From: Azolla caroliniana
Lineage: Eukaryota; Plantae; Polypodiophyta
NCBI GenBank assembly: GCA_043228905.1
Contig: JBHGNT010000034.1
Span: 1-64,000 of the forward strand
Reading direction: 5' to 3'
Length of the DNA stretch: 64,000 nucleotides
Position 1 is the stretch's first letter, and each line of letters opens with the position of its first letter. Both the position numbers and the translations under genes were made by a program. Below the pieces are notes generated by a model, which was given only the letters and a program-made list of their open reading frames with translations, searched no databases and had not been told where the DNA came from. Below are positions 9,751 to 41,158 of this stretch, piece after piece.

Positions 9751-9758
9751 TCGACATA

Positions 9759-11987
9759 ATGAATACTCAAATGGTGAGCACTCTCCCTACCGAGAAGTTG
9801 GATCGAAACAACTTCGCATCTTGGGAGTACAAGATGTACCAATACCTTGTCGGACAAGGCTGTTGGGACATGTCCATCACGACATACACCTTGAAGATCA
9901 AGGAGCTTTGCGACTCGCTTGGCTCAATAAGCGTAAATATCGATGATGATGAGATGGTGCAAATATGCCTCGACGGCCTCACACCACGGTTCGGCGCGAT
10001 GCGAACTGCCGTTCTAGCAAGGGAGAAATCTCCCTTCTTCTTCGAGCTCCAATCAATGCTATTGGTCGAAGAAAACCACATGCGTACAAGGAACAATGAG
10101 TCGGAAGGCCACATGCTCTACACGCACTCAAACGGAGGAAGAGGATGTGGATGAGCGAGAGGCCGATTCAGCCAAGGATAAGGCAGACGAGGTCTGACCT
10201 ACGACAACAACTTCCAATTTCGGCCGCAAAACGGAAGCCAACAAGGAACCTTCGCAAGAAGGGGGAGCTTCCACTCTAGCCCGAGCCGTCAAAACGCAAC
10301 CGAATGCGGATATTCCGGAAAGCTCGGCCACCACGAAGAAGAGTGCCGAAAGAAGATGCGCGAATCGGCTTCCACAAGCCGACAACTCACGAATTACGCA
10401 CACAATTCCGACTACGAAGAGTATAGCGGAATGTACAAGCACAACTCCAACTACGAAGATCGTGGCGGAATGTATGCACACAACTCCGACCGTGGCGGAA
10501 TGTTCATGATGAAACATAGAGCAAACTCTATGTCATCCTCTACCTCAACTAGTGCCCTCAATCCGGAGGATGTATGGTTTGTTGACTTCGAAGCCTCAAA
10601 CCATATGACATCTCATAAAGAATGGTTTCTCGAACTTTGAGAGCCAGAGCGACCCAGTTATGTCAAAACTGGAGATGACACTACGCACCCGATTCGGCAC
10701 ATCGGCAATGTTCTGTTCGGCAAAAGAGGTAAGCAAACATACATTAAAAAGGTCTTGCATGTTCCCACCATCATGAAGAATTTGGTCTCAGTTGGCCAAA
10801 TGGTTGAGCAAGGGATGCAAGTACGATTCGACCAAGAAGGGTGTTTCATCGAAAAAGATGGCCGAATCATCGCGCGCGGAAGAAGAGAGGGTCAGATGTT
10901 CATTCTTGATTCACACGAGATGAAATCCGCCATGTTCGCAAAAAGCACGAAAGTTGACTCCGACATAGAGCCATGGCATAAGCAAATTGGCCACATCAAT
11001 CTCAATAAACTCAAAGCAATGAAATCGAAAGGAGCGTCATCGGACTCCCGACATTCAAAGAGAAGGAGATTGAAGGTGTATGCGAAGCATGCCAATTCGG
11101 CAAGCAACACTGACACCCATTCCCGAAAGAGTGGAACGTGAGCAAAGGTCTACTCGACGTAGTCCATTCTAACGTATGGGAACCGGCGCAGACGGCTACA
11201 TTAGGCGGATGCCGATATTACGTGCTCTTCATCGACGACTTCTCCAAGCACACGTGGCTCTATCCAATGCGGCAAAAGAGCAAAGTGTTCAGACACTTCC
11301 AAAAATTCAAGAATGAAGTCGAGAAAGCCATGGGCCGACATGTATGATGTCTTCAATCGGATGGCGGCAAGGAGTACTTCTCTGACGATTTCACGGCGTA
11401 TCTCCGAAAGGAAGGAATTCGGCGAGAATTCACTTGCCGACACACTCCGCAACAAACGGAGTAGCCGAGCGCAAAAATCGGCACATCCTTGAAGTAGCGC
11501 GGGCCATGATGAACGAGAAGCATATGCCCAAGTCATATTGGGCCGAAGCTGCAAATACGACCGTCTACCTAATGAACCGGTGCACAACATTCGGAGTGCA
11601 CGAGGTCACTCCGCACGAAAAATACTTCGGAAAGAAGCCGGACTTATCGTACACCCGGATATTCGGTGCGATAGCGTACGTGCACATCCCCGACGAGAAG
11701 TGTCAAAAGCTTGACCCGAAGTCGGAGAAATGTATCCTCCTAGTATACTCACTGGAGCAAAAGTGGTACAAGTGCTACAACCCCTCAACTCGAAAATCTC
11801 GAGTAAGTCGAGACGTCGTTTTTGACAAGTCCGCATCTTGGTACGCACTAGAGACAACTTCGACTCCGACTCCGCTTGACCCGGAATCCGCCGAACAAGA
11901 GATAGAGGATGAAGGATACTCAAGGATACTCAAAGATCTGGGCATACCCATCAAGGATCCGACTTCGTTTACTGCGACAACATAAGC
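9759..11987 (+). pseudogene. Copia A gag-protease-integrase pseudogene fused to the RNase H C-terminus
   Basis: LPTEKLDRNNFASWEYKM (gag), WFVDFEASNHMT (protease), WHKQIGHIN, VVHSNVW, FIDDFS and NGVAERKNR (integrase), with stops and frameshifts. The RNase H tail (NPVFHVRTKHIKVHYHFIRE) continues at 18012-18210. Confidence 0.9.
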
Positions 11988-12031
11988 AATATTGTCAATG
12001 TAAGTGTTTGCGGAAGCGTAAAACAGAGAAC

Positions 12032-12143
<112 letters not shown>

Positions 12144-12820
12144 AGAACACAATTTCAAAATTATATCAAGACTCTGTATTTACACACTGTGCTAAGTAGC
12201 ACTATTTATACAAGTCCTCTTGGGACTGACAAAAGTACCATGTACTTCAATGCTCACACGAGCATTTGACACTTACTACGAGACTATAGATACCTAGTAG
12301 TCTATCCTATTCTAGGCTTCCGATTGGATTGCCGGTTACGGATTGCACCCGGCCTCCACTGCTTGCCGGTTCGGTTGCTCACCGTCATACCGATCCGTTT
12401 CGCCCGATCCGTCTCGCTTACCGGCTCCGGCTTATTCAGCCGATCCGGCTCCGGTTGAGCTTGCCGCTCAACACTCCCCCTCAAACTCTCCGCCTCTAGT
12501 GTCGTAGTGTCGACCTCTGTGGCAGTCGGTTCTTCCAACCGACTTCTCCTGGCGTCACTCCGCCTTGCTCGCGCTCCTCGTCCGGTCCGGTCCCGTTTGC
12601 CGCGACTCCTTTGGTTCTGCGCGCCTCGACCCTCTCGGTCGGCATGTCTGCTCAATAGGCCCATCTCAGCACTCACGTTGTTGTGACTCCGGCGCTTGCT
12701 GATCCGTCGGTTCTCCCACAATGGCATCGACTTCCGCTGTGTCCGTGTCCCCTTGGCCTTCAGTCGATCCGACTCATCCGGATCCATCTGTTGATCCAAG
12801 TCAGCTGTCTCCGACTCATT

Positions 12821-15800
12821 CTAGCTCTTGTCCGAATCGGTACACTCCGATTCGACTTCCGGCTTCAGGCCTCTCACCACATCGGACCACTTCCGAGTCT
12901 TGGCCTTCTCCATGCTTCCCTCGGCTTCTTTAGCCGGTGAACCGAAATCGAATTCTTCATTCAACTCCGCATCATGGTCAGTACCGTCGTGATGACCTCC
13001 GCACAACATGCACTTCTCTTCCTGAGTGCACAACTCTTCTTCACAGCCGCTTGCTCCGACCTGTTCGGATGTGTCGACTTCCTTCGTCGACTCGGCTTCC
13101 TTCATCTTCTTGTCTCCTCTTCTTCCGGCTCTCCTCTTACCGACAGGTTCAACAGTTTTTTTGCCTTTGCCAGTTTCGGTAGAGACTTTGCCCTTGCTTC
13201 TCCCCCTCAAGTGCGGCACGTCGAGATGCTGAATACCAAGCATGTCGGTAAAGTGCTGCAACTTGTCCGATCCGAGCGGCTTGGTGAAGATGTCGGCAAC
13301 TTGCCGATCCGTATGAACATACCGTAGGTCAACTTCACCGCTCGGGACCCGCTCACGCACGAAGTGGTAGTGCACCTCGATGTGCTTTGTGCGAGCATGG
13401 AACACAGGGTTCCTGGCGAGCTGCAGGCTGCTCATGTTATCGCAGAAAATCGGGATTGGGGTCGGCACCTTGATCCGCAAGTCTCGCAGCAGTCGCCAAA
13501 GCCAGATGGCTTCACAAATGGTAACGGTAGCGGCCCGATACTCAGCCTCAGTGCTTGACAAAGCCACTGTGGGCTGCTTCTTGCTGCTCCACGCAACGGC
13601 CGCGCTACCTATGGAGAACATGTATCCGGAAGTGGAGCGGCGATCAGACGCATCGCCGGCCCAGTCAGCATCGGTGTAACCGACAAGCTCTTCGGGTATA
13701 CCTCGCCGATATAGCAGTCCCCGGTCCTTAGTGCCACTGACATACCGTAATATGCGTTGCGCGCACTGAAGGTGCTCCACGGTCGGCTTCTGCATGAACT
13801 GACTTACCATGCCGACCGGATAGCTGATGTCGGGTCGGGTGATGGTTAAGTAGATCAGGCTTCCGACAACCTGTCGGAACCGTTTCTCAATGCAGGCTGG
13901 TCCGGAGTTGGGACGGAGCTTCTGGTTCCGGTCCAGGGGTGTGGAGACAGGTCGGCAATCCGTCATGCCGAACTTATACAACATATTCAACACGTAATGT
14001 CGTTGTGAGAGCAATATGCCGTCGGGGGTCCGGATCACTTCGATCCCAAGAAAATAATGAAGTTCCCCCAGGTCCTTCATTTCAAATGCGTCCGACAACT
14101 GGGACTTGACGCGGTTGATTTCGGGAAGACCCGGTCCGGTGATGACTAAATCATCCACATACAAGAGTATACATACCGGACCGTCAGAGCCTTGCCGGAT
14201 GAACAACGAAGAGTCTGGCTTAGAGACAGCAAACCCCAGTTTACGCAACCGGTGCGTGATTTTCGCGTTCCAAGCTCGGGGGGCTTGCTTCAAGCCGTAA
14301 AGCGACTGCTTCAGTCGGCAGACCGCCGATTTGTTCATCTCCGATTGAAATCCGGGGGGCTGAGTCATAAAGACTTCTTCTTCGAGCTCTCCTTGAAGGA
14401 AGGCGTTCTTCACATCCATCTGGTGAAGATGCCACCCCCTTGCCGCAGCAACCGCCAGTACCACACGAACCGTCGTCATCTTCGCCACAGGAGCGAAGGT
14501 CTCGTCGTAGTCGATTCCGTGGGTCTGCGCGTATCCCTTCGCCACTAACCGGGCTTTGTACCGGTTAACAGAACTGTCGACGTTGTACTTGACCTTGTAC
14601 ACCCACTTGCATCCGATCGGTTTACAGTGATGGGGAGGATCAACTAGGTCCCAAGTTTCATTGGCATCGAGTGCCTGCATTTCTTCGTCCATAGCGGCAC
14701 GCCAATTTGCGTCCTTTGCCGCTTCTGCGTAGCTCTCCGGCTCGCGCACTTCTGTCACCTTAGTCATGTACGCATAATGATGCACCATGTATTCATTGTA
14801 CCCGTACCGCACGACGGGATCCTTCTGACGGGTTGATCGGCGCAACACACCGTCACCTGATTTGAGGCCCTTCTTGGCCAATTCGGTCTTCGTTGCCGAA
14901 GATCTGCCTTTCTCCTTTCCGGAGTCGGATACGCACCGATCCGACTCATCGTTGCCGGTTTCGAATTCGACATCTTCCTCTTCCCCTTCTCTTTGCGCGT
15001 GAACCGTTTCCTCGGTGCCTTGCGCGGGGAGAGCACGGCAGAGTCTCCACTACTTGCCGTCTCTTCATCCGACTGGTCCAACCGACTTAGTCGCTCATTC
15101 GGTCCACTCAACCGTAACGATTCCGGACTCTCATCTTGAGTCCCGACATCATCATCCTCTGCCAGGGCTGATTCAGCCTCATTGGCTTGATCTTCCGACA
15201 TTGGGTCGGGATCGGACGTCGGAGTGGGTACGGAATACCAGGATGCCGATTCATCGAACTCGACATCCCGGCTAACTCGGACTTCCTTCGTCCGGGGGTT
15301 ATAGCACTTATACCCCTTTTGCTCTTGAGCATAGCCGACTAGGATGCATTTTTCCGATTTTGCATCCAGCTTTCTCCACTTCTCATCCGGCAGATGCACA
15401 TACGCTATGCTGCCGAATATCCGAAGGTGTCTCAAGTTAGGCTTGTGCCCGAAATACAGCTCATGAGCTGACACCTTGTCACCAATGCGGTTTTGTATGT
15501 AGACGGCCGTCCGGACCGCCTCCGCCCAGTAGAACCGGGGCATGCTCTTTTCCTGCAGCATTGCCCTTGCCGCTTCGACGAGTGTCCGGTTCTTCCTTTC
15601 GGCCACACCGTTTTGCTCCAGTGTGTATCTGCAGCTGAACTCTCGCCGAATTCCCTTCTGCTGCAGATAACTAGTGAATTGGTCGGAAAAATATTCCTTT
15701 CCGCCATCCGACCGAAGGCATTTGATCTTCCTCTCCGATTCCCGTTCCACCATCTTCTAGAGGCTCCGGAAACAGTCGAACACTTTGCTCTTCCGCTCAA

Positions 15801-17507
15801 TGAGGTAGATCCAAGTATGTCGAGTATAGTCGTCGATGAAGGAGATGAAGTATCGGTTCCTGCCAAGGCTTACACTTTGTGCCGGTCCCCACACATCCGA
15901 ATGGATGAGATCGAGCTTGTTACGGCTCCGGTTCCGTTCGGTGGGGAATGGAAGCCGGTGTTGCTTCCCAAGTTGGCAGGCTTCACATATTTCGGCTCTC
16001 CGGCCGCTGAACTTTGGCAAACCGAAAACGACTTGTTTCGCTTGCAGATCTTGAAGCCTCCGATAGTTGACGTGGCCTATCCGCTTGTGCCACAGGTCGA
16101 TGTCCGACTCGACCTTCTGTCGTTTCGCGAACAGAGCGGTGCCAAAGTCATTGGTGTCGAGGATAAACATCCTCCCATCTCTGCGCCCTTGCGCAATGAC
16201 TTCGCCCTCATCCTCAATGAAGCACCCGAGGTGCGTAAACCGCACCTGCATCCCCTGGTCGACAATTTGACCGACGGACATCAGGTTCTTCGTGATTATC
16301 GGAACGTGTAATACGTTCATCAGCTTCTCTTTCTGTCCGACGTGGCTTAGAGGGACTTCTCCGACGTGCACAATTGGGTGAGGAGTGTCGTCTCCGGTTT
16401 CGACTACTCCTGGTTGATCCGGTTTCTCCAGAAAGGAGAACCACTCTTTGTGGCTCGTCATGTGGTTCGATGCGCCGGAATCAACATACCACACTTCCTC
16501 CGTTTTGGAAGTGGTTTCTTCATTGAGTTTGCCTTGTGATTCATCACCAAGGCTGGCCCCTTACCAGCCTTTTCGGTTCCGGATCCTCCCGATCCGTTTG
16601 CGTAGTCCGAGTTTTGCCGGCCATCCTTACCGGTCTTGCCGAATCCGGATTTGTCCGAATCGGCACGCTTTCTCCAGCACTCGCTTTCCCTGTGGCCTTT
16701 TTTGCCACAGTACCAACATTCCGTAGCGGATTTGTCTTGCCGGCCTCCGGCACCGCCTTGACTCCCCCTGCTTGTGGAAGTCCCGGAACTGTTGTCGGCA
16801 CGCTCATAGTGCTTCCGTTCCTGCTCTTGTCGGCCGCCTCCATTGCGTGCCGACCCACCTCTTCCACCACGCCCACGGAGCCGATCTGTTCCCATGTACA
16901 ACATTCGGCTGTCCGGGGATGCACTGGTAGATGCACCGGCGTGGTTCTCCTCTACAAGGAGCATCGACTATAAGTCGAAGAATGAGGGGGTATTCTCCCT
17001 TGTACACACCGCAGTCCGGAATGCTCCGAACTTGGACGCCAGGCCTCCGAGACATACCTGCACCATCTCATCTTCCTCTACGGTAACATTGATAGAGGCG
17101 AGCGAGTCGCAGATCTCCTTTATCCGGCCCGTGTAGTCTACCACGGACATGTTCTTCTGTCGAACATTGCTCAACTCCTATCTGAGTTGCAGCTTCCGGG
17201 CAGTTGTGCTTGCGGCGAAAACCTTTTTCAGGTTCCCCCAAGCATCCTTCGGTGTCTTGGCGTCCCGAATGTGGCTGAGCAGCTGATCGTCGACACTGGA
17301 CGCGAAGCAGTACATCACCCTGCTTGCCGCCTGTTCCCATACCAGGAAGTCCTTGTGTGCCGAGTCTGGCGCCGCATCATTCGCTCCTTCGACATAACTC
17401 CAGTACTTGTGTCCAAGCAGGTACTGGTGCATCTTGTAAGACTAGGATGCGTAGTTGCTCCCGTCGAGCTTCTCCACCGGGAGCGACGTAGCCATGCCTC
17501 TATCCAT
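12821..17507 (-). pseudogene. Copia B gag-pol polyprotein with several in-frame stops and frameshifts
   Basis: Zinc knuckle CWYCGKKGHRESEC; protease WYVDSGASNHMT; integrase LIHSDVWGP / LRSDGGKEY / NGVAERKNR; RT QMDVKNAFLQG / YVDDL; RNase H GYTDADWAG / STEAEY. Confidence 0.93.
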
Positions 17508-17641
17508 GTCTACTACTGTGTCTGTTTTCGACCTGTTAGGGTTTTCTTCTCAAGAGTTAAATGTCTGCAACAGAGGTTCTCAACCCTCGCACTCTGATAC
17601 CATGTCAACGTAAGTGTTTGCGGAAGCGTAAAACAGAGAAC

Positions 17642-17685
<44 letters not shown>

Positions 17686-18411
17686 AGAACACAATTTCAA
17701 AATTATATCAAGACTCTGTATTTACACACTGTGCTAAGTACCACTATTTATACAAGTTCTCTTGGGACTGACAGAAGTACCATGTACTTCAATGCTCACA
17801 CGAGCATCTGACACTTACTACGAGACTATAGATACCTAGTAGTCTATCCTATTCTAGGCTTCCGATTGGACTGCCGGTTACGGATTGCACCTGGCCTCCA
17901 CTGCTTGCCGCTCACCGTCATACCGATCCGTTTCGCCCGATCCGTCTCGCTTACCGGCTCCGGCTTATTCAGCCGATCTGGCTCCGGTTGAGCTTGCCGC
18001 TCAACAAATATCTATCTGGTTCAGAACCCAGTGTTCCACGTGCGGACAAAGCACATCAAAGTGCATTATCACTTCATCCGAGAGCGCGTTCTAGCTGGCG
18101 ATGTCAACCTACAACACATTAGCACCAATCTTCAAACGACCGACATCTTCACTAAAGCCTTAGGAGCCGACAAGCTATGGCAATTCATGACCGATCTCGG
18201 ATTGACGATCCCTGACGCCACGAAGAGCCGATCTACCACGCAAAGTCGCGAAGAAAGACGCAAGCCGAAGCACAGACTTCGTAGCTACGCACAACGCAAG
18301 CTGGAGCACGGATTCCACAACTCCGCATAAATGTGAGTCGACGCGGACTCAAGAACGCGAGTCGAAGCGGATTTCGGATACCGTTTGAAACCGACTGAGC
18401 TTGAGGGGCCG

Positions 18412-18806
18412 TGTTGAGAATCAAGCTCAACTTGGTCTAGTGTGTGAACTCACCTTGAGAGTGAATAGACACTCCAACGGTTAAGAGTCACCATTATGTC
18501 ACCACTTTGTATTCTAGCATTTAGTATGAGTCATAGAATCATATTCTATGACACATAACTTATGAGCTTTCACATTCCCCATGCTCCATGAGTCTTATAG
18601 TTAATGAAGAGAGAGGGTGACTATATAAAGCACCCTCCTCCCACCTTGTATGTTGTCGAGTCTTTCTCCTTTGTTAATATACTTTAACTTGCGTATTCTC
18701 TGTGTCTTACTCCTTGTCTCTCTCACTCTCTCTCTCTCTCTCTCTCATACACACACACAACTCATATTTATTCCGTTGCACAAAATCCATCTCTTGATTC
18801 TTTACA
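18412..18806 (+). repeat. Copia A 3' LTR
   Basis: Direct repeat of 9170-9566, followed by TSD ATGGT. Confidence 0.95.
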
Positions 18807-20439
18807 ATGGTTTTATGGTTGGCATTTGTAAAGCATGGGATGCTGTTAAGTTTTTTTTTATTCGTAGATGCCCCTCTTCGAATGAAGAACTGTTGCGGCA
18901 ACCTTTGATTTGGAATTTTATTTTTTCTGATAAAAGGGGTGTATTGCTTGACAGTAGACTGCGATTACCGTGGGCTACGTTGGATAATGGTATAGCTGCC
19001 ACGGTAGGCTCTTGGGGAAATTATGTTTTTCATCTTAATAATTCACAGCTAGATGCTGCCATGTGTAGGGGGTTTTACACTTATGTTTGATGAAATTCAA
19101 TTATCTTTAGGGAATTTTCTCTATAATTGGTCACCTTCTTTTGAGCATGTTTGGTTTGGATATTTTACTTCGGTTGGCGTTATTATAGGAGTAAAAGGAA
19201 TAACATCTCAAGGAGACTGTTACTATTTTGATGTGTTTGAGGAAGGAAGATTATGGCAGACTAATATGGGATCATCAATTTGGCAAACAACATTGCAACA
19301 TCCGGGAGAGTGATTAGTAAATCGGGTAAAAGATGGATTTTAGATCTTTCTCCTTCTAATAGTATGTTGTTTTGCCAACTATGGGTTTAAAAAAAAAAAT
19401 CATTGTTGGACTTGCATTGGGATCCATCAAATTATCTTTCGAAACATACAAATCCTTCGTCTCATACTGATTTTTTTCAATTTTTTCAATATTCTGTGAA
19501 GTTGGGACGAAAGTTGCTCTTAAGTAGGAAATTTCATCCGCCATCTGCTATGAAAGTGTGGTTGGCGAATGGGGCCTCTTTAATGGATGCATCTAAATAT
19601 TGGAAGTGGTTATGGAGTATGCAAATTCCTAGGAAGATTGTCCTTTTTCGTTGGTTATTGATCCATTATGCACTACCGGTTCAGGCTTGGTCACGGCAAT
19701 TAGATAGTAGGTCATGTGGTTTTGGTTGTGGATGTATGATAGAATCAATTAAGCATGTATTGTGGTCTTGTCCTAAAATTGTGCAAATATGGCATAGAGT
19801 ATTAAGGTTGTTGATATTGATACATGTTAATTGTGTGGTCACTTGTGGTGCAGTTAGGTGGGGCATTCTAGAGGGACAACTCTTATTATATGAAAGGGAG
19901 GATATAGTGGAAGCCTTTCACATAGTTCCTCCTCATATACAAATGGTTCAACCTTTTATAAGTGACAGTTTGCAATTTAGGGATGATATTATCTGGAATA
20001 CAATTTCATCTATTCTGATGTGGGTAATTTGGAAGGCGCGATGCACATCAGTATTTGACAATGTCACTCAGGATGCTTCTGTTATAATTGCTGAATGTTG
20101 GTTCTTACTTGTTCATACATTATGTGGTCAACATGAAAGTTTCAGTGGCAATATTGATGCCATTTTCAGGAAGCAAATGCATTTTAAAAGGATATGGACC
20201 TCTATGCTCATTTTTAGGGAAGATGGAGATCACATAATTTGGATGTATATTGTTCCCGTCATTTTGGGAAACAATGTCTACTAACTTTGTTTATGGACAT
20301 TCTGTTGTTACATATTTTGGGTGCTATAGGTTACATTGCATGCTCAATTGCAGTTTGGGAGGAGTAGACGATAAAATTCTTGGAGATATAGTGCACAAAT
20401 ATGTGTAGTTCTTGTATATACACATCAAATCGGCTATGA

Positions 20440-20731: not shown

Positions 20732-20849
20732 TAATCACCCCCCACTTTTCCCCTTCGAAAACAAATCTCATCTATACCCTTAGTGCCCTTATTTTAGAAT
20801 ATCACTCACTTTCGATGATGTAGTTTACCAACAAATAAAAGGTACGGCC

Positions 20850-21614
20850 ATGGGTAGCAACTTTTTAGTCGTATATGCATGCCTCTTTTTAGTATATCTC
20901 GAAAACTTACAACCATCACCCCCCCATCTCTTCTACTTCACCCGCTATATTGATGATGCATTTGGGGTCTGGACAGGCACCAAATCTCAACTTTTAGAAT
21001 ATCTCGACTTTTACCCTTTACACACAAATAACTCCATCAAGCTTACCATTCAAACTTCCCCCTTTCGGCTACCTTTTTTAGACATATGGATCAACCTCGA
21101 AAATTCATCTTTCTTATTCAATTGTTTTCAAAAACCTCTCAATTCATACCAATACTTGCCTTTTTCATCAGATCATCCTTCCCATACGAAACAACACTTT
21201 ATCACTAATGAAGTGAAGAGATATCTCATTAGAGAAAGCACCCCATTAGGTTTCTACCAAATGAAAAAACTCTTTTTCAATAAACTAGTTAACCGTGGTT
21301 ACCCTCCGTCCTTTATACTAAAAAGCTATAAGAAAATACCTTTTAGTCTTAGAAAAACACTCCTATATCAACCCAAAACTATTACTTCCCTTAACCCCAC
21401 AATCTTTAAACTTAGATACACCAAACATACCCCAAAACTAGGCATTCATAGTTTTCTAAAAAATCTCTATAATGACTTAATGTTAGATCCCGAGCTTACA
21501 AGCATCTCACGGCCTTTCGTATGTTGGACAAAATCTAAGTCCTTACATGCCCTCCTAGTTAAGACTAAGTTTTCAAAAAATCCTTCAAAAAATCCACCAA
21601 AATCCCCCACTTAA
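20850..21614 (+). CDS. Penelope-like reverse transcriptase C-terminal half (partial ORF)
   Basis: 254-aa ORF with YIDD catalytic motif and PLE thumb; a frameshifted upstream extension reaches about 20760. Confidence 0.8.
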   Translation: MGSNFLVVYACLFLVYLENLQPSPPHLFYFTRYIDDAFGVWTGTKSQLLEYLDFYPLHTNNSIKLTIQTSPFRLPFLDIWINLENSSFLFNCFQKPLNSYQYLPFSSDHPSHTKQHFITNEVKRYLIRESTPLGFYQMKKLFFNKLVNRGYPPSFILKSYKKIPFSLRKTLLYQPKTITSLNPTIFKLRYTKHTPKLGIHSFLKNLYNDLMLDPELTSISRPFVCWTKSKSLHALLVKTKFSKNPSKNPPKSPT

Positions 21615-21774
21615 AACTAAGTTTTCAAACAATCCACCAAAATCCCCCACGTAAGACTAAATTTTCAAACAATCCACCCAAATCCCCCACTTAAGACTAA
21701 AGTTTTAAACAATCGGCCCAAATCCCCCACTTAACACTAAGTTTTCAAATAATTCACCCACATCCCCCACTTAA
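21559..21774 (+). repeat. 40-bp tandem repeat, about 5 copies, overlapping the PLE stop codon
   Basis: Unit ttaagactaagttttcaaacaatccaccaaaatcccccac at 21611, 21651, 21691 and 21731, plus an expanded first copy inside the ORF. Confidence 0.9.
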
Positions 21775-21877
21775 TATTATCTTAAATCCCCCTTTTTCAT
21801 CACATTAAGAACTCCCCCCACACCATCATCATTATACTAATTCCCCCTCTCTCATTCCCTATCACTTTCCTACACAC

Positions 21878-22089: not shown

Positions 22090-22588
22090 ACCACCCTCTT
22101 TGAATTAAAAACATCTCTCTCTCTCTCTCTCTCTCTCTCATTAGTGTATGTTGCCTACTTTCTCTTGTTTAGCTTAAGCACCCTCTAATCGTCGTGTGCC
22201 TATCCCTACGCACTCCTTGTTTCGACCATTTGGTCCTAGTAAGATACAGTCCTTCGACCTAGACCTCCAAGTGGGTGTGGAACAACGAATAGGCGTCTAA
22301 GCGTAATGCATAGGGGAATGTTCCCTGTAACCTATCAGCGTATAAGGGAGACGGCTACAACCGAATCCTTAGCAAGGGTTACACTTACGTTCTTACACGC
22401 TCAGGTCTTCAAGACACACACAGTGGATTAGTCGTAACTATACATAGAGAATCAGAGAAGATAGAATTCTATTATGAGACGTTTCTTTACATTCCCAAAA
22501 TTAGACGCTACCTCTATTAGAGGTTTTCTGCCCTTTATATACGTAGGGTCTATTTAGCCGTTCACGCTTCCTGCGTTATGATCTTATA

Positions 22589-25156
22589 TTATCTCTTATT
22601 CCTACGCTCTTGTCCGTTGGTTACTATTCCGGCGGACAACACCTGGCACGCATGTGGGACAGTGCCCTGGCACGTCGGACCCATCCCGTTAATCCTCTTC
22701 CAAAATGGCCCGAATGTTTGGCTATGTTGGGTGCCCGCGTCCAGAGGTGACGTAGGGCCCGTAGGTGCATCGTGGTGTGGCTCCTCTGTTTGGTCAGGTT
22801 GGTTTCTCCCGGAGTCGCAGTCACCGTGCGTGGGCGGTCTGGGTACGGTGGGCTCTTCTTGAGCTAGTGGGTTGGGCTCTGCCGTTGTCGTGCTTGCAGT
22901 CGGTTGCGGCTCTGCCTCCATTGTTACGTCCTCCATGGTGTCAGCCGTTTTTGTACGTTTCGGGGAGTGGGGCGGTGATTCCGCCTGGCCCGCACCGTTC
23001 TCCGTGTGGTCCGATGATAGCGTGGGCTCGTGCAGATGAACCTCCTCTTGTGCAATGGTTTCGTTGTCTGGTACTTTGGGGGACTCCACTCGTCGGTCCG
23101 CGTTGTTCTCCATCGTTGTCATTTCTGGTGATCGGACCTGAGGTTCCTCTTCTTCGGCCGTGCCCGGAATTGGCGTCGCACTGGATTCCTCGTTTGTGTG
23201 CGTGTTGCCGGCTTGTGTGATCTGGTGAAATAGCTCCTCCTGGCTTTCACCAAAATCATCTAAGAGTTGCGCGAGTTCTTCGAAGTGTTGGTCCGCTAGC
23301 GCACGATAGTCTTGCGCTAGGTCCTCTCATACGGCCACAATGGTCTCCTCATTTAGTTCATAGAAACCTCAGCCGTCTTTTCGCCGGTTCTCCCAGTCCG
23401 CACGATACGCGTGCAATTCCGCTGCTTGGGTTGCCCACGCCATCCATCCTTTGTCCAACGCCGTTTTCAATTGCGCTGTGAACCTCTCCCGATTTGTTTG
23501 GAGAAGGATACACACGTTATTTGTGATGGCCTGACAACGGTTGCGTGCATCCTCCATCGACTTCTGGAGGTTTGCAATTTCTTGTTGTTTAACCGTCGCC
23601 GCTTCTTCATACGTGGCCTTCAGGCCCGCCCACAGTTGGGATTCCTTTGCATGTTGTTCTTCTAATTTCCCCATTTCATTGTTTGGGCGGATTTCGAGCT
23701 GATGCCTTCTTTCTTGTTCGACCACCAACTGCTCGTCGAACCATACCTTCTTTTTCTCTAATAAGGCCCGGAGTCCAGCGATTGCCGCCTCCGATTTCTT
23801 CGCGTCCTCCCGTAATTGGGCGTTTTCGTCCTTTGTCTGGATGTGCTGAGCTACCTTCGTAGCGAGTTTCTCTTCAAGGGTTTTTACTGCCTTCCGGCCG
23901 TTAGCCCGTATCTCCTTTTCTCTGTCTGAGGATTGGCGTAGTTCCGCTCGAAGGCGGTCAATTTCTGATTCCGCTAGTTGCACGGCCCTTTTCGCTTTTG
24001 AGGCGATGGCGGTCTAAGCCTCTATTTCTTCTTTTAAAGCGTCGATGGCGTGGTTTGGTGGCGGAGTTGCGTGTTGCGCCGTAGTCGCGTGAGCTTCCAA
24101 CTCCGCGATGCGTTTGTTGGCTTTTTGTAGTTCGACTTGGGTCAGTTTCACCTTCTTCCAGACATTGTTATTTTTTATGGCCATCTCCTTGGCGCCCGTG
24201 CTAACCTTTGCCAGTTCCTGATGGACTTCGACTAGGGCCGTGTTTAATGGGGCTATCTCCATCCCCACTTGGCGTACCCCAACGTTCCTCTGTCTGCCGA
24301 CCCTGGCTAGCCGGTCCTCATCGTCGCTCTCCGTCATGTGTGTTAGGGCGCGCTCGATCATCTGGCATTCTGCATGCTCTTCGGCCATTCATTGGGCGAC
24401 TTTTACCTGTTGTGTTGCCAGGAACTCCATGAGCTCAAAAGAAGTGTCGAACTGTAAGAGGGCGCTGAACTCATGGGCCGTATTCGGGATATCCAGATAT
24501 GCCAAAACCTCGCTTTCCGGCGTTAATACGACTTTCCCTCGTTGGGACTGGGTCGTAATGATCGGTCATGGCTCCCGGATGATTTCGAAGGTGGTATTGG
24601 GTTCCGTAGCTACGGAGCCATCGCCTTCGGTTGGTGTCTCTGTCGCCGTGGGGACGTCTTTGACCAACCCCCGCCCATCTTTCCTGTCCAATCTATGCCG
24701 TTTCGGTCTGGGGTTGCTTCCCCGAAATGTGCCGGTTGTTCCTCCTGTGTTATCCGTGTGTCCGGCTGGTCGGTAGTTGTTGTCGTCGGGTCTGGCTAGG
24801 CAGGTTGGGGTTCCTCTTCCCACTCTAGGGCCGCTAACTCCGCTAACCTGCGTTTCGCGGATCGGGGCAGGAGCGTGGGTCGACTGGGCTTCTGCGACCC
24901 GGATGTACCCATCCAAGCGTTTCTCCACGAGCAATTGGTGTAAGGCAGTAGAGATGAAGATCATCATCGCCATAGGAGATTCGTGGGAAGGAGACTGGTG
25001 GTTACGGTGGGCTGAAGCTCTGTGATAGGATGGAGGAGAAGGTGAGGGGGAGGAGCGATGGAAGCGCTAATAGCTAGAAGATGAGTTTATGTTTTGTGCA
25101 GAAAATCTTCTGTTTCCTTCTTTTTGTGGCTTAGGGTTCATTGGGTGGTGAGCCAT
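22589..25156 (-). pseudogene. Extra sense-strand ORF downstream of Gypsy pol, a long coiled-coil protein of unknown function
   Basis: ORF fragments starting at 24973, 24388, 23983 and 23122, and an upstream ATG at 25156, all share one reading frame broken by about 6 stops and no frameshift. Confidence 0.75.
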
Positions 25157-25326: not shown

Positions 25327-28300
25327 CTATTCGGCGGTAAATGGGTTAGGTGGCGTAGGGCCTAGGTAAGGTTTGAGCCGAAACCCATTCACCTTTTGCC
25401 GGACTACTTCCCGTCTAGCATACCTAGTTCGAACGTGCCTTGTTCCGCTCCAATTATCCAGTATGGGCCAGTCCAGCGGAATCGTAACTTCCCCCGGCAT
25501 ATGGCCCATGCGAGTTTGGAAAACCAGCACCGCTCGACCCAGAACGAACTCCTTTTCCCTTGCGTTCCGATGTCGATCCACAAACGCTTTACACCGTCGT
25601 TGTTCCTGCTCCAACACAGCCATGCTGTGGACACGTTTTTCCCCTAGTTCGAGGAGTTGGTGGAGTCGTACCTCCTCCGACTTGGCTTCTGATAGTCGGT
25701 TTCGTACCTGAATTCGCAAACTAGGTACCTGAAATTCGACCGGCATCACAGCCTCCAGCCCAACTGCTAGTCGAAACGGTGTTGACTGTATGCTTGTTTT
25801 GTAGCTAGTTTTGTACGCTCATAACGCACTCTGTAGTTTGGTATCCCAGTCCGTTCTATTTTCATTAACGATTTTCTTCAAAATGGTCTGCAACTTCTTG
25901 TTGGTGGATTCTGCTAATCAGTTCGCCTGCGGATAATATGGCGTACTCTTCTTATGGACTACGGCGTAATGATGTGTTAGTTCTCGAACAACCGTATTGA
26001 GAAAGTGGCTCCCCTGGTCACTGATAAACTCAATCAGACAACCGAACTGGCACCGGATGTGCTCGTAAAGGAATCTGGCTGTGACGGTCGCCGTATTTTC
26101 ACGTAGTGCCTTTGCTTCTACCCATTTGGTGCAATAATCCGTGGCTACCAATATGTATTTATTGCTCGTACAAGTTGCCACCGGTGTGAAGGGCCCCACA
26201 AAATCCAATCCCCACTTTTGGAAGGGGTCTAGCGGTAATACGAGCTGGTGTGGCATCCTTGCGCCCTTCGCGGGTTGTCCCATCCGTTGACACAAATCAC
26301 ACTTTTTACAATACGTGGATACGTCCTTCTACGTTGTTGGCCACCATAAGCCCGCCTGTCATACTTTCTGGGCTGTAACATTGCCCGCGTAATGGCCGCC
26401 TGCCGTGCCGCAGTGTGCCTCCCATAAAACTGCTTCCTTCTCATCCTGACGTACCCCACGTCACCAAATGCCGTCACTTCCTTTGTGATATAAAACGCCT
26501 TCGACGAGGCAGAAGTGACGGCTTCAGACGGCTAGTCGTTTCTTCTCATTCGTGTGTAATTGTGGTGGAGGCAGTCCCGTAATAAAAAAAGTACGTCATT
26601 TCCATAAGCCACCGATCCGGAAAGGTCGAATCTGTTCTTTCTGCTAGTGTCGCTACCCGTAGGATATCGGCGTCCAGAAAATCGTTGTCATCTTTCTGTA
26701 TTGTTTATCCATTCTCGAGTTTGCCCAAAAAATCCGCCATTGCGTGTTGCGTCCCTGGTCGGTGTTGGATTACGAAATCGAATTCCTGGAGCAACAGCAT
26801 CCATCGCGCCAATTTCCCTGTAAGGGCTTGTTTCTCCACCAAATACAGTAGCGCCGAATGATCCACGTGGAACGTGAATTTCCTTCCTAATAAATAGTGC
26901 TGGAATTTATTGATGTTATAGATCATCCCTAGCGCCTCCCGCTCCGTTGTGGAGTAGTTACGCGCTGTTGTTGATAATTTGCAACTAGCGTAGTATACTG
27001 GCCGGTACCAGCTTGGTTCGGTGAGCTGCATTAGTGCACTTCCTATTGCTATGTCTGAGGCGTCGACGAACACGTGGAATGGCTTCGCCCAAACTGGTGG
27101 TTGTACGACAGGAGCCTGTGTGAGCATTATCTTAAGTGCCTCATAGGCCTTATCCTTCGTTGCAATCCATTGGAAAGGAGTCTGATGTACGGCAGCGTGT
27201 AACGGCGTGGCGAAGTCCGCCAAATATCGTATCATCTGACTATGCCACCGTATTTGTCCTAAAAACTGGCTGAGCGATTTGGCGTTTGTCAGAGTTTTGG
27301 CTTGCGTAATCGCGGAGATTTTGTTCGGGTCAACCGTTATTCCCTCCTTGCTGACTATATGGCCCAGGAGAGTCCCATTGGTCACGCCGAAAGCACATTT
27401 CACGGGATTCAGGCTTAAGCGTGCGGTGCAGCAACGTTCCAGGCATAGTTGTAAGTGCGAAAAATCGTCTATTGTTCTCCCATATACCGCAAAGTCATCT
27501 AAAAATACTTGCATGAACGCCGGAATGTATTCCCCAAAGATCTCCGTAATTGTCCGTTGAAATGTTGCCAGCACCATCTTTAGCCCGAACATCATGACGA
27601 CTGCCACATATACTCCCCAGTCCGTGACAAATGCTGTCTTTTCTTGGTCCTCGGGATGCACGCGTACCTGGTTATAGCCACTGAAGCCATCTAAAAAACT
27701 GTACATCTCATGGCCTACGACGACGTCCAGTACGCTATCGGTGAAGGGTAAGGGAAATGCGTCTGTAATGGTGACGGCGTTTAATTTTCGGTAATCTACG
27801 CATACCCGTATTTTGCCGTTTTTCTTTGGAATGACCACTATCGAGCTTAACCATGTTGCTTGTTTAATTGGTCGTATGAACCCCACCTTCAGGAGCTTGT
27901 CAATTTCTTCTTTCACGCGGGTCGCGTAGTTGGGGTTCATGTGGTAGCGGCGCTGCTGGACGGGTTTCACGTCGGTTGCTAAATTGATCTTATGCTGATA
28001 GAACTTGGGATCTAACCCCTTCATGTCCACGTGAGCCCAAGCGAACACATCCTTATATTCCGTGAGTAGTGCGATCATCGTGTTTCTTTGGTCCGGCCTT
28101 AATTCCTTTGCGATGGAGAGGAAACGAGGCTCTGATTCCGTACCCACATTTACTTCTTCAAGGGCGGAAGCGGTGACTCGTCGTGAAATCTCCATTTCCC
28201 TTTCGAATGCCGCTCGTGCTCTGCTGAGTTCCAATATGGACTCTGGGTTTGGTTCCTAAGGCTTGTCGTGGAGAACAGTGGCCGTGGCATATTCTGCCGC

Positions 28301-30423
28301 GGTTGCGATGTCGTCTATTTCAAACTGCGGAATAATCTGAGGGTGCTCGTCGAGGTATGCCTCTAATTTTGCATCCTCCACCCTAGCCAACATATTTATA
28401 TCTTCTGCGTATAATGGTGTTATACCCGTGGGTTGTGGCGTGCTTCCTTCTGTAGGTACGCGAACCTTGGTGTGTCCACGTCGGAAACTGATACACTTGT
28501 GTTGCCAGTTGTGCTTGATATTTGCTGCCCGAAGCCATGGTCTGCCCAGAAGAATTGGGTATGCCCTTGGGGCGTCCAAGGCGAGGACGACCGCCGAGAT
28601 GTCGAATCGGTGTCCGCCCACAATAATGCCTATTTTGCAAATTAACCCCAATGGTCATACTGAGCGGGTATCTGCCATTTGGAGCCAAAATGGGCAAGCC
28701 TCCCATTCTGAAATGCCTAACTGCTCGCAAGTTTTCGCGCTAAGTATATTGACGCCTGAGCCGTCGTCGATTACGCATCTAGGAATTTCTTGTCTGTGTA
28801 ATATTAATGTAATAGTTGGGTTGTGTTGATCCACTACTGGCGGTCCATCGCTAACATCTGTAAGGTTTGTAGCGATATTCACCCCGGGTATGCCTGTCAC
28901 CCATTCTTCCATGGTCTGGCGGAAGTGTGGGACTAGTTGCAACAATTCCTCCATGGTTAACGTTATCTCACAGGCCGCTAACGCCTGCCAAATGGGGTCT
29001 GGGACCGGTCTTTTGTCCTCTACTCGTTCCATTGTGTTCACGGACTCCTTCCGCATGCGTTCCGTATTTGTCGCGTTTGCTTTTTCCACCCACGCTTGGG
29101 CTTGTCGGCGTAGCTCGTCTTGCGCAGCCCAATCAGCCGTTTTTGTTTGCTAGCGTGTCGTGACTTGCTGCACTTCTGCCGTAATCGTATTGACAGCGGG
29201 CCCCTTTCCCTTGCGTGTTGGGCATTGCATGGCATAATGTCTAGATTGCTGACAAATAAAACAATGGATGCTTGATTCACCCTTCTCGGCTCCTAGTGGC
29301 GTGTGCCGCTCCCCTGGTGCTACTTGCTCCTCGCGGTCCGGCCTCGTTTGTCGGAACGTACGCGGTGGCTGTTATTGGTCCCGTCGTTGTTCCTGGTGCC
29401 GCTCATCTCCCGAGCTTTCGTCGTAACGCCGGTGATCTCGATATTGCCGTGGCTTACCACGATAACCATTGAAGCCGCCCCGTTTGTTTGTCGGCCGGTG
29501 GTTCTCGTAGCGCCGACCCCCTTTGGCATAACTCGGATGTCCACGATAATCCTCATCCTCTGGTTTGTCCTCCTCGGAATCGTTGTGATTTCGGCGATTC
29601 CGGTGGTGCCGGTCATCCCGTGGGTTGCGATCCCTATACCGTGGTCGGTCTTCTTGCCTCCTTTGTTCAGTCTGGTGTGGTGGACATTGCGTGTCCATGC
29701 TGCGGACTACAGGAGTGGCTCTGTTCAACATATTGTATTCGCATTGGTCGATTGTGTGAGCCTTCGAGTGGCAGATTGAGCAATGGATTGCATATTGCAC
29801 TCCACTGCAAAATGCCCCGAGTTCAAGCAAATCGTGCACTGGATTGCTTAACGAAACTGGCGTTCCTCGTCCTGAGGTAACGCTTGTCGTAAGGAGGACA
29901 TAGAAAACCTTTCCTCCTCGTCATCCAACTCGAGCTGTAACGCTCGTTCAATTACCATATCTGTCGTCTCCCCTTTCACGCTATTGTTGTTGAGCGTTGC
30001 CCGGATGGGTCGGCGTAAAGCTGCCAGAAATGTTTCCCGAGCCTCGTCCTCCGTAGGGCTTCGTTCCAGTTTCCGTCGTAAATTTTGGAAACGTAAGTTG
30101 AAGTCTGCTATCGTCTCGGTCGGCAGTTGCTTAATCGTGTAAAACTGCCCGAGGATTTCGTGTTGTGGAACCCTCCGATGGAAGAACCGCAAGAAAGCGG
30201 ACTGCAGCTGATCGAAGGTTGTTATTGCTGGTAAATCCATCTGCGAATGCCAAAACGCCGTTCGCTCATCCAATGTTAACCCGAACTCCGTCATTTCCAA
30301 CTGGTGTGCTACCGCCTCCGAAAGGCTCTGCGCCATGTGTTTCGCATTCCAGACATTCAGGAACATGCGAATATGAGTTGCGGCGTCGGTTTCGCCGTTA
30401 AAGCGGGGGTAGGCAAAGGCCAT
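25327..30423 (-). pseudogene. Gypsy gag-pol with stops and frameshifts
   Basis: Retrotransposon gag (FDQLQSAFLRFF..IKQLPTETIADFNLRF), Cys/His knuckles (CSICHSKAHTIDQC), protease CVIDDGSGVNIL, RT RVCVDYRKLN / FLDGFSGYNQ / FLDDF, RNase H FVDASDIAIGSAL, integrase WGLDFVGP / ISDQGSHF / YYPQAN. Confidence 0.93.
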
Positions 30424-30711
30424 GGTGGGGGCTACGACGGGTCGGGAAAGACCACAGGGTGGTTGTGGTGAGTGTAGTCCCCGCGTCTCGTCGAGGTATT
30501 TGGAGAGCGAAGAATCACCTTTGTACTCACGGCAGGTAGTACTGAGGTTGCTGAGGCGAGGCTTTTGCCATGCACGTTCTTCTGCCTAGCATGTGACGGA
30601 CCTTGTTATTGGTCGGTCTTGTCGTGTTGGTTCTTTAGGGCGTCTACGGCTAAACATCCATTCGTCGTTGCTCATATGTGAGAAGACACAGATCACCAAG
30701 CGTGCCAAAAG

Positions 30712-31151
30712 TGTTGCCGATTAGGAACACAATCCGCGATCAGTCCTTCGACCTAGACCTCCAAGTGGGTGTGGAACAACGAATAGGCATCTAAGCGTAA
30801 TGTGTAGGGGAATGTTCCCTGTAACCTATTAGTGTATAAGGGAGACAGCTACAACCGAATCCTTAGCAAGGGTTACACTTACGTTCTTACACACTCAGGT
30901 CTTCAAGACACACACAGTGGATTAGCCATAGCTATACACAGAGAATCAGAGAAGATAGAATTCTATTATGAGACGTTTCTTTACATTCCCAAAATTACAC
31001 GCTACCTCTATCCGAGGTTTTCTACCCTTTATATACGCAGGGTCTATTTAGCCGTTCACGCTTCCTGCGTGAACCGTTACATGCGTTATGATCTTATATT
31101 ATCTCTTATTCCTACGCTCTTGTCCGTCGGTTACTATTCCGGCAGACAACA
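30712..31151 (-). repeat. Gypsy 5' LTR
   Basis: Direct repeat of 22247-22641 with 5-bp terminal inverted repeats; minus-strand TATATAAA near 31035-31028. Confidence 0.93.
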
Positions 31152-35762: not shown

Positions 35763-35938
35763 TGTCGAATACATGTGTATAATGGACGTATTCACACTAT
35801 CTCGTTTTGGCCATTTATGTAATTAGCATAAAGGGTAGTTGCCCTAAGTCAGTCACTATATATAGTGACCTTGTAACCTCTTTGTGAGGTTGGTTGTTGT
35901 ATTGTTGCTTTGTGAAATAAAGAGTCTTTTGTGTGTGT

Positions 35939-35982
<44 letters not shown>

Positions 35983-38900
35983 AACGACCTACATTCTGTC
36001 ATACGCAGGGAATAAACAGGGATCGAATGCTTCTTGATCTTCCGCACTGACGACTTTGCTTACAACATCTGGTATCAGAGCCTGCACAGTAGTCGGTTCT
36101 TCAATCCGCTGTCGGCCGTCGTCTCAGCATTCGGTTTCCTGCGTCATTCGAAGAAGAGAGAAGAAGAAGAAAAACCAGGTTTGCATCTCATCGCGTTAGA
36201 TTATCTTGCTTGGAGTAAGCCAGCAGGTCGTACTCCGTTCCTTGTGATCGTAACCGCTCGAGGTGAAATCCCCTTGTGCAACATTGACACGATCGTGCTC
36301 CACTTGGTTAAACGGCATCCGAAAAGGTCATTGAACGCTACTCGCCGCTCGTTGTAACCACTCGGTGCAGATCGGTCTCAAGACAACAACCCCAAATTCG
36401 TGCTTCATCTGGCTGATCGACATTCAGGAGGATCAGTTGGATCCGTCTCTCTCGTTGCTGCAATCAACCGAAGCAAAATCGGTCCAGATAATCGGTTTTA
36501 ATAATCGGTATTCGGCATATATATCCGAACCGAACCGGGCTCACTCCGACTCGGCAACATTCGGGAAGACCAGTCGGTTCTGTCCCTCAAGCTACCGGAG
36601 TCAATTCGAGCAAGTTCCGAAGCCGAACCGACTCGGGTTCAAATCCGACTAGAACGATATCGGGTGAGCCAACCGGCTGCACTCCAACAAGGTTCGTAGT
36701 CAACTCCAAACCGAGCTTCGTCAACCGAAACCAAATTTGATGGCATCAACATCCGGCTCGTCAGAAATGAGTCTACGCAAGTTCGATGGATCGAACTTCA
36801 ACTTCTGGAAGGAACAAATGCAGGACTATCTCATAGTCAAGGGGCAAATCGATCCCATCGAAAATGAAGAACCTCCAGAAGGATACAAACCAATTGAGTG
36901 GCAGAAGCTGGACAGAATCGTCTGCGCCACGATTCGGATGCACCTATCGGAATCGGTATACTTTACGGTGCAATCGTGTACGACAGCATTCGAACTGTGG
37001 AAAACGCTGTCGGACACCTACGAAAAGAAGGTCGCCGCAACGAAGATGTTTCTGATCCGGCGCCTCTACAACTTGCGGATGAAAGAATCCGATTCGGTTC
37101 AAGCACACCTCAATGAGTACGAAAGCATAAGCTCCCAAATCTCGTCACAGGGGATGGCAATCGAGGATGAGCTTAGAGCAATGATACTCATGAGCAGCCT
37201 TCCCTCATCATGGGAAACTTTCGTCACAACTGTGTGCAACGCGTCAACCACGGCTGTCAAATACTCCGAAGTCACGAGCGCAATTCTGACCGAAGCAGCT
37301 CGGAGAAAGTCTTTTGCCAAAGACTCAACGGACGACGCCTACGTAGTACAAGGTTCGACAGACCGATCGAACATACGAGGAAGAGATTCCTCACGACCGC
37401 CGAACAATCAACGAAGACGGAGCCAGTCACGGGATAACCGAACCTGCAACTATTGCAAGAAACCCGGACACATCAAAGCCGACTGCCGCGCACTCAAGAA
37501 CAAGAACAACAAGAAGAGTGGCCGGCATGAGGAGGTCAACTACGTCAGCTTCTCAGCTGATGTGCTACCAGACGACCCAAATATACTATCAATCGAAAAT
37601 CCAGTCGAATCAGAAGTTCTACTCACGACTGAAGAGTCGAGCACATGGCTCTTAGATTCGGGCGCGTCGTTTCACGTGACTCCTCATCGATCCCAATTTC
37701 GGCAATATACGATCCGCCACTCCGACTCAGTTCGAGTCGGTAACTCGCAACACTGTGACATCATCGGAATCGGCACAGTAGAGCTCAACCTTGCAGGTGG
37801 CTCAACACTTGTACTCCACAATGTCCGACATGTACCCGAGCTCTCAAGGCCATTGATCTCAGTCGGACAACTAGATGAAGACGGCATTCGTGCCGGTTTT
37901 TCTTCGGGAGGGTGGACACTCCACAGGGGGAACCTCCTGCTTGCTAGAGGACCCAAGATACACTCATTGTATCCGTTACATGTTACGCTCAGAGAGGGTA
38001 ACCTGTTTTTGGTGGATATTCCTGTGTCATCACTATGGCACCGAAGATTAGGACACCTCAGCAAGGCCGGCATCACGCACCTATCTAGAGCCGGATACAT
38101 CCCCAAACTCTCCTTCTCGGACCATCAATTCTGCGAGCATTGCCAGTATGGCAAACAAGCAGCCGCGTCACACCCGACATCAGCACCAAGAGAAACGAGA
38201 CCTCTTGATTTAGTCCATTCGGACGTCTGTGGCCCAATGCCGCATCAGTCTCTAGGCGGTGCCTCTTACTTCGTCACTTTTATTGACGATTCGACTCGCA
38301 AGGTGTGGGCTTATCCAATTCGTACCAAAGATCGGGTCTTCTCGATCTTCACCGATTGGCTCGCTATGGTAGAAAATCAAACCGACCGAAAGCTGAAATG
38401 CCTTCGGACAGACAATGGGGGAGAGTTCAAATCCGAAGAATTCGTCAAATTCTGCCGACAACGCGGCATCCGACGTGAATTTACGGCACCACACAGCTCG
38501 GAGCAAAACGGGATTGCCGAACGAATGAATCGGACAATCCAAGAAAGGATAGTTTCCATGCTCCAACACTCCGGACTGTCGGATGGCTTCTGGGCAGAGG
38601 CTCTACTCACGGCAGTACACATAATCAATATGTCGCCAAGTAGACCTCTAGGACTTCAAATTCCTCAGGAACTATGGATCGGCAGTAAGCCGAATTACGA
38701 CAAGCTGAGGATCTTCGGATGCGAGGCGTACGCCCTTATTCCGAAAGATGATCGCCGAAAACTTGCACCTCGGTCCAGGAAATGCATTTTCCTTGGATAT
38801 GGATCCGACGGCGAAATGGGATACCGACTCTGGGACCCCGAACGCAGGCAAATCGTTCGAAGTTCGGACGTTGTGTTCAACGAGTCGGCTATGAATCCAC

Positions 38901-41113: not shown

Positions 41114-41158
<45 letters not shown>

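Follow-up and report, generated by a model that had tools for sequence, protein, structure and literature searches.

A reversed, split tRNA-Arg(UCU) match at the polypurine-tract position in a Ty3/gypsy lineage: a candidate second primer-binding site

A lineage of Ty3/gypsy retrotransposons probably does without a polypurine tract (PPT): a reversed, split match to tRNA-Arg(UCU), located where the PPT belongs, reads as a second primer-binding site (PBS) on the minus-strand DNA, from which a second tRNA-Arg would start the plus strand. The site was found in a decayed copy within the analyzed stretch of 64,000 nucleotides (the window), and recurs at a fixed place in related elements. Plus-strand priming is described as PPT-based in the available part of PMC5371799, and that of PMC12789967 states that all retroviruses have a PPT. 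Minus-strand priming, for its part, is known to vary, with whole tRNA, half tRNA, split sites and self-priming.

The window copy and its two tRNA-matching sites

The window copy is a decayed, non-chromovirus Ty3/gypsy element on the minus strand (Table 1). It has direct LTRs of TG...CA type, the gene order gag-PR-RT-RH-INT and a tRNA PBS 3' of the 5' LTR; the end of its 3' LTR is lost, and both TG...CA ends are read in L054, a nearly complete relative that combines an uninterrupted polyprotein of 1797 aa with an extra ORF of 1194 aa, a 5' PBS of 13 nt and the same 3' site. The RT-RNase H region of L054 is 73% identical to that of the window copy. In both copies, protease was assigned from position and motif and has no Pfam match. 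In a quick tree of 101 out of 122 rows, from which rows devoid of the RT core were excluded, the RT falls into a 15-row clade of unnamed proteins, within a supported 29-row clade that includes three Adiantum proteins. Together with the Adiantum match of the neighboring PPR gene (Table 1), this points to a likely fern host. The extra ORF has five unnamed homologs, matched over the N-terminal part alone, in proteins of 656-2090 aa. Its counterpart in L054 (139-3723, minus strand) shows coiled-coil-like and low-complexity parts and belongs to no Pfam family.

Table 1 Features of the gypsy copy and of its surroundings in the window
Feature	Positions	Strand	Basis and remarks
5' LTR	30712..31151	-	TG...CA (TGTTG...CAACA); TATA-like box on coding strand; mixed loose ends at 30712 correspond to the LTR end
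Spacer CTTT (4 nt), 5' LTR to PBS	30708-30711	-	Sequence
5' PBS TGGCACGCTTGGTG	30694..30707	-	14 nt complementary to tRNA-Arg(UCU), including 2 G:U
gag-PR-RT-RNase H-integrase	25327..30585	-	Pfam; interrupted by stops and frameshifts; neither chromodomain nor second RNase H seen
Extra ORF, long, on sense strand, in broken pieces	22589..25066	-	No Pfam family; L054 has an unbroken equivalent of 1194 aa
Block 2, complement of tRNA T arm nt 58-49	22675..22684	+	Comparison with tRNA; G opposite U55
Inserted hairpin: A, 4-bp stem, 3-4 nt loop, G	22661..22674	+	14 nt, between tRNA positions 59 and 58
Block 1, complement of tRNA-Arg(UCU) nt 76-59, one base fewer	22644..22660	+	Comparison with tRNA in L002:1190-1265
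Spacer (2 nt), GG on RNA strand, CCA to TG of LTR	22642..22643	-	Sequence
3' LTR	22247..22641	-	Last 29 nt gone; self-BLAST to 30741-31151, 18 mismatches, one 16-nt gap
RT fragment, presumably Penelope-like	20784-21614	+	Adjoins the truncated 3' LTR; no Pfam match; Atlas look-alikes carry PF26215
About six 40-bp tandem repeats	21544-21783		Follow the RT fragment
Three Copia elements, one nested inside another	9170-18811; 11993-18006; 35763-41243	+; -; +	tRNA-Met-type PBS; short G-rich PPTs
Part of a Copia element	36668-40753		Open 1361-aa polyprotein; LTRs 97% identical
PPR protein gene	53521-55560	-	Most identical named match from Adiantum, 53% versus 29-41% for other named ones among the 120 matches listed
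PHD-finger ORF	47195-48373	+	Host-type
ALMT fragment	1862-2443	-	Host-type

Directly before the start of the 3' LTR (22641), the RNA strand reads GTCCCACATGCGTGCCA-GG. The letters of both junctions agree exactly with the first-pass annotation, and so does its claim that there is no purine tract here: the last 15 nt hold 8 purines and no G run. The three Copia elements of the window have the G-rich ends GAGGGGCCG, ACGGGGGAG and GAGGGGGAG before their 3' LTRs, with 9, 10 and 12 purines out of 15; the 15-nt purine count by itself separates the gypsy copy from them weakly.

The tRNA-like site reported earlier near the 3' LTR is present, and is longer than described: a second block, corresponding to the T arm of the tRNA, takes it as far as 22684. 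This 41-nt site (22644-22684) lies 2 bases inside the 3' LTR. Its minus-strand DNA form, the strand on which blocks 1 (17 nt) and 2 (10 nt) are read, matches tRNA-Arg(UCU) nt 76-49, except that it is one base short and carries a hairpin inserted between tRNA positions 58 and 59. This insertion point is the usual stop of tRNA copying, at m1A58. A supposed second CCTGGCACG at 22666-22674 turned out to be the loop and 3' arm of this hairpin; the stem varies between families and there is no conserved second copy. On its own, the 8-mer is nothing unusual in 64 kb (2 copies versus 0.78 expected; at least 2 in 19 out of 100 shuffles). The weight therefore rests on its placement, since the chance of finding it within 1-5 nt of one LTR edge is about 4e-5, and on the whole three-block match, with a chance of about 1e-12 per position.

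The primer identity, proposed in the first-pass annotation, is now derived from whole tRNA-Arg(UCU) copies captured in related loci (L002:1190-1265, plus strand; L012:2079-2154 and 2800-2872, minus strand). Two of the three end in CCA and one is degenerate. The L012 copy continues via AATT into the U5 end of the LTR, which is the form of a minus-strand cDNA with a copied primer; on their other side, the captured copies adjoin integrase or extra-ORF sequence. The RT of this lineage seems to copy the entire primer tRNA at times, and the fusion of a CCA-ended whole tRNA at the 5' PBS junction links tRNA-Arg to the minus strand. Among 92 loci, no tRNA capture was seen at the 3' site, all three being on the 5' PBS side or at a contig end. 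ARAGORN found no tRNA gene in the window.

In the window and 14 loci alike, 10-14 nt of the 5' PBS match the tRNA, and the two further blocks are always absent from it. It retains both G residues required by the real tRNA, of which the 3' site retains only one. Its ninth base is T in most of the depth and C in 6-21%, among the contig rows listed; this T majority suggests that the PBS is not reset from the tRNA at each cycle, as in Ty1/Ty3. A T at PBS position 10 (window 30698-30699; L061) goes with a T at position 10 of the 3' site (22653); in the two large metagenome families, C occupies position 10 at either end. The match of the 5' PBS to the real tRNA is longer than its match to the 3' mimic, which sets the element apart from the self-priming type (Tf1, Tcn1, TAR). 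Given this longer match and the whole tRNAs at the 5' PBS, minus-strand self-priming is not needed. The earlier proposal that the 3' mimic mainly circularizes or self-primes the RNA is also disfavored: in the window and 14 loci, the 5' PBS offers nothing for 17 further tRNA-matching bases to pair with, and end-to-end pairing over its 10-14 nt cannot account for most of the 3' site.

Conservation of the 3' site

Sister copies were collected as contigs from four runs (two organism labels, leaf metagenome) aligned to positions 22480-22900. The family is very high-copy, with 1773, 2149, 1738 and 319 contigs on this segment. Inside 22642-22683, two variants were seen among the 40 rows listed. At 22652, the A of the window copy is a minority letter; C, which restores a pair with the tRNA, makes up 85-99% of contig depth in the four runs. 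At 22667, in the hairpin loop, A accounts for about 66% of depth. Loose ends beyond the LTR edge are mixed flanks (agreement 0.38-0.56) with no shared tract among the rows listed, and those at 22611 (two runs) and 22686 (one run) suggest other families whose similarity is limited to the LTR tip and the site.

Relatives were searched for in metagenomes with a three-block pattern that left the LTR sequence unspecified and fixed most tRNA-matching bases, so that families departing from the fixed bases, or bearing a PPT, could not surface. The scan returned 93 matches in 91 loci, 13 of which have short flanks only. As many as 85 of the matches (83 loci) sit 2 nt from an LTR end, and AACA at -6..-3 is exact in 76 of the 86 sites (these 85 and the window), with one mismatch in 8. 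By their flanks, the 86 sites form 23 groups, which are related to one another; all 83 loci belong to a single accession series, and possibly to a single host group. The inner side of L035 is almost identical to the window family. The remaining loci (L004, L009, L028, L050, L052, L055, L083 and L085) were rejected as chance matches, as they come from other sources and have neither AACA nor an element-protein match. Among viral contigs, an RT search gave 0 confirmed relatives out of 7 pattern matches, and a motif scan gave one match, L001, on a phage-like contig without similarity to the window.

Wherever the inner side has a coding match (37 loci), the site runs antisense to the genes; the number is 35 when two circular cases, which rest only on a junction-spanning ORF piece, are set aside. 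The other 46 of the 83 loci have no coding match. Hence, in every readable locus the junction is the 3' junction. Both sites are also kept in a non-coding family (14 matches; L010, L016, L031) with no stop-free stretch of more than 150 aa between them. The elements of these three loci measure 1.9-2.2 kb, and the family as a whole, with L039, L063 and L065, is put at 2.3-2.5 kb; it has its own LTR, a 10-nt PBS and the same 3' site. Its members often occur in tandem or in the order PBS-LTR-site, from either a real tandem or assembly collapse.

No conserved purine run was found within 150 nt of the site: the longest run measures 3-14 nt and is mostly 37-138 nt away. In the window family, a 9-nt run lies 51 nt inside the 3' LTR; a purine segment 40-60 nt inside had been considered as a possible PPT, and the lack of conservation in position and length argues against it. 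In 86 of 86 sites, the relatives being chosen by motif, the last 15 nt contain 7-9 purines and no G run. Conservation of the motif beside both LTRs is thus supported by the contig pileups at both junctions and by the pattern-scan relatives. None of the outcomes named beforehand as contrary (sister copies with a PPT, an unconserved motif, a deeper purine segment used instead) was encountered where it could be checked.

The middle gap of block 1 is 2 nt in 85 of 85 matches, although the pattern permitted 1-3 and the tRNA needs 3. The tRNA-matching bases persist while the hairpin between them takes six distinct Watson-Crick stem forms, with a perfect 4-bp stem in 15 of 23 groups. Across 54 distinct rows, three of the four stem pairs change on both sides. 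A cell-based covariation measure reached 44 cells, versus 18.0 +/- 3.7 after shuffling (0 of 500 shuffles reach it), a figure inflated by kinship; pair-count and pair-type measures were not above shuffles (333 and 243 of 500). Counts of G:U versus A:C in the hairpin are not diagnostic of the folding strand, because methylation decay yields both. Opposite G67/G68, C or T is found in 78 of 85 matches, a wobble-keeping kind of change that C-to-T decay can imitate. A pair is lost to an A opposite G68 in 6 of 85 matches and in the window copy, and to a TA variant in 1 further match. In five groups an A recurs at position 9 of block 1 (window 22652; L022, L034, L037, L048, L062, L071); despite costing a pair with the captured tRNA, this base may point to another tRNA-Arg isodecoder. 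Overall, the feature is real, conserved and apparently under selection.

Candidate routes of plus-strand priming

In the reading that we favor with some confidence, the PPT has been dropped altogether and host tRNA-Arg would prime both strands, the plus strand by way of a three-way junction, with a bulge, formed on minus-strand DNA. Priming of the minus strand by tRNA-Arg at the 5' PBS is well supported by the fused CCA-ended tRNA copies. After strand transfer, following the general pathway, RNase H would clear the RNA and leave the site as single-stranded DNA. A second tRNA-Arg is predicted to anneal to this minus-strand form through 10 bp, a bulged C, 7 bp, the DNA hairpin and 8-10 bp of the T arm, which would place its CCA two bases before the LTR. 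Extension of the CCA by RT would then cross the 2-nt spacer and enter U3, leaving integrase its usual two surplus bases to trim, and RNase H would remove the primer. More speculatively, the bulge and hairpin may protect the hybrid against early RNase H cutting.

Several observations favor priming by a second tRNA. The position 2 nt from the LTR is fixed in 85 of 93 matches to a pattern that did not name the LTR, and none of the 8 remaining matches has AACA there. The antisense orientation holds in all readable loci; the site is present in 23 groups, both in intact, autonomous L054 and in non-coding elements, which would keep mainly cis signals, and no purine run holds a fixed place. Base changes mostly preserve pairing with the tRNA, the G opposite U55 included. 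In addition, with RNA parameters standing in for the RNA:DNA hybrid, the 3' part of the tRNA is predicted to bind the 3' site more strongly than the 5' PBS (-26.9 versus -17.9 kcal/mol in the window, -36.1 versus -23.4 kcal/mol in L054), and more strongly than the ends would pair in cis (-14.1 and -16.2 kcal/mol, respectively). The split sites of Ty1/Ty3 also bind the T arm, according to the available text of PMC5371799. On the other hand, second-tRNA priming is weakened by the absence of tRNA capture at the 3' junction and by the fact that a tRNA:DNA hybrid is an RNase H substrate, the catalytic residues of RNase H appearing intact, by eye, in L054. The pair-breaking A opposite G68 and TA variant also count against it. 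Finally, the match goes no further than tRNA nt 49, where the T stem ends, and this suits a structure in the RNA equally well.

Such a structure is the basis of the main rival reading, which we hold to be unlikely: the element's own RNA would be the primer, a tRNA-like T stem and hairpin setting the cut at the LTR edge so that a CCA-ended piece substitutes for the PPT. Tentatively, the T stem would stall RT, or be recognized by RNase H or a host tRNA enzyme. The match does fade at the T-stem edge (Watson-Crick in 22, 16 and 12 of 23 groups at nt 51-49, and in 8-9 of 23 at nt 48-46), and several groups are predicted to fold as a T stem plus hairpin. The distance from the stem base to the LTR is a constant 12 nt, near the approximately 13 bp between the active sites of Ty3 RT (PMC5371799, available part). 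Yet such a ruler requires structure rather than identity with a host tRNA, and covariation is confined to the small hairpin. The outer pairs of the T stem are broken in 18 and 12 of 54 rows without compensation, its 3' side being fixed by the pattern. Moreover, predicted folds vary between groups, and the D arm and 5' acceptor strand are absent. In 6 of 23 groups the majority letter is G opposite U55 (U55 to C in the mimic), a change that, judged from sequence, would keep a wobble pair with the tRNA and spoil the T-loop of an RNA mimic.

It is distinctly improbable that the site has another role, such as RNA-end joining, packaging or a tRNA-fragment decoy, with plus-strand synthesis beginning at a purine stretch that is short or displaced. 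The CCA tail and the 5' PBS could form 9-11 bp, the PBS of the non-coding family is exactly the 10 nt of the CCA tail, and the window family does have its 9-nt purine run. The 3' tRNA site of Drosophila gypsy, as described in the accessible part of PMC1635307, bridges the ends and is dispensable for cDNA synthesis. But the 3' sites of gypsy and Ty3 have the opposite sense and leave the tRNA 3' end unused, whereas the present site includes the CCA. The unpaired 17 bases noted above and the unconserved purine runs also speak against such a role, and we know of no integrase that trims an end left by starting 50 nt inside. Priming by a second tRNA on an antisense RNA begun in the 3' LTR, whose short product would then anneal to minus-strand DNA, has sequence requirements identical to those of the favored reading, and an RNA:RNA duplex would evade RNase H. 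We nevertheless consider it very improbable, for no such transcript is known, the sole TATA-like box reads closer to the consensus in coding-strand orientation (by eye), and a further packaged RNA is demanded. That the tRNA copy is functionless, through a one-off copying accident or chance, is scarcely credible. Whole tRNA copies have been accidentally captured in the lineage (L002, L012) and the window copy is decayed; however, strong-stop accidents place tRNA copies at the U5 end, and this site adjoins the U3 end. Across 23 groups, whether the elements are intact or non-coding, the site keeps its place and its one-base gap and the hairpin covaries, which by now largely refutes an accident.

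If priming by a second tRNA holds, it is a plus-strand route absent from the literature searched, and it breaks a rule stated for all retroviruses. Either leading outcome, a second tRNA or the element's own tRNA-like RNA, would be a new way of defining the U3 end, and would show an RNA:DNA hybrid escaping RNase H without purine richness. A natural integrating lineage with a defined 43-nt PPT replacement makes the priming question directly testable. Such elements would be missed or misoriented by annotation software for which a PPT is obligatory.

Comparison with known systems

Among plant Ty3/gypsy elements, the layout is that of Athila, with no chromodomain, no second RNase H and a long extra ORF (PMC6317226, supplement MOESM5, in which the 3' extra-ORF columns of the Athila row appear shifted). 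In the 1797-aa polyprotein of L054 there is no Pfam chromo match at E<=0.1 after the integrase, and RT_RNaseH models alone match, at one place, leaving no archaeal-type RNase H (aRH) as in Tat/Ogre/Retand. Unlike Athila, whose PBS typically corresponds to tRNA-Asp, Asn or Ala, the present element uses tRNA-Arg(UCU). A tRNA-Arg PBS is shared with Ogre, TatIII and part of Retand, which, unlike it, carry aRH; Phygy and Selgy also lack a chromodomain but have no extra ORF. Target-site duplications measure 5 bp in Athila and 4 bp in Phygy and Selgy; the window copy has lost one outer LTR end, and no related contig covers the two outer flanks of an element. The available parts of PMC6317226, on the REXdb lineages, mention no PPT-less group and state that 'most' elements have a PPT. 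The element departs from canonical PBS and PPT replication in having no PPT abutting the 3' LTR. HIV-1 3'-PPT mutants arising under integrase inhibitors likewise lack a normal 3' PPT, but are associated with LTR circles and with replication in the unintegrated state (PMC11680205, accessible part); here, copy number is high, the ends are TG...CA and a tRNA site is present.

Ty3 of Saccharomyces cerevisiae uses a tRNA-primed minus strand, a PPT-primed plus strand and a bipartite PBS (PMC5371799, for this and the following statements on Ty3 and Ty1, as far as its available text goes). The present element shares with it the gypsy gene order, a match to the acceptor end and T arm of the tRNA, and a tRNA-binding segment near the 3' end. 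However, in Ty3 the 3' segment belongs to U3, has its tRNA complementarity at the RNA level and functions in initiating the minus strand, and there is a 12-nt PPT, whereas the present site has the opposite sense, occupies the PPT position, includes the CCA end and is accompanied by no PPT. The split PBS of Ty1 likewise has two tRNA-binding segments with a small internal loop between them, but it is the 5' PBS on the RNA, while the site described here adjoins the 3' LTR in reversed orientation. Drosophila gypsy, with tRNA-Lys2, has two sites for one tRNA at both element ends; in contrast to the present one, its 3' site binds the anticodon and T stems rather than the 3' end, primes nothing, and the PPT is kept (PMC1635307, accessible part). 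The available part of PMC12786077 holds nothing further on plus-strand priming, and no description of a reversed PBS at the PPT position was found in the literature searched, which covers few subscription journals. By analogy, the site would work like the split PBS of Ty1/Ty3, reversed and relocated to the PPT position.
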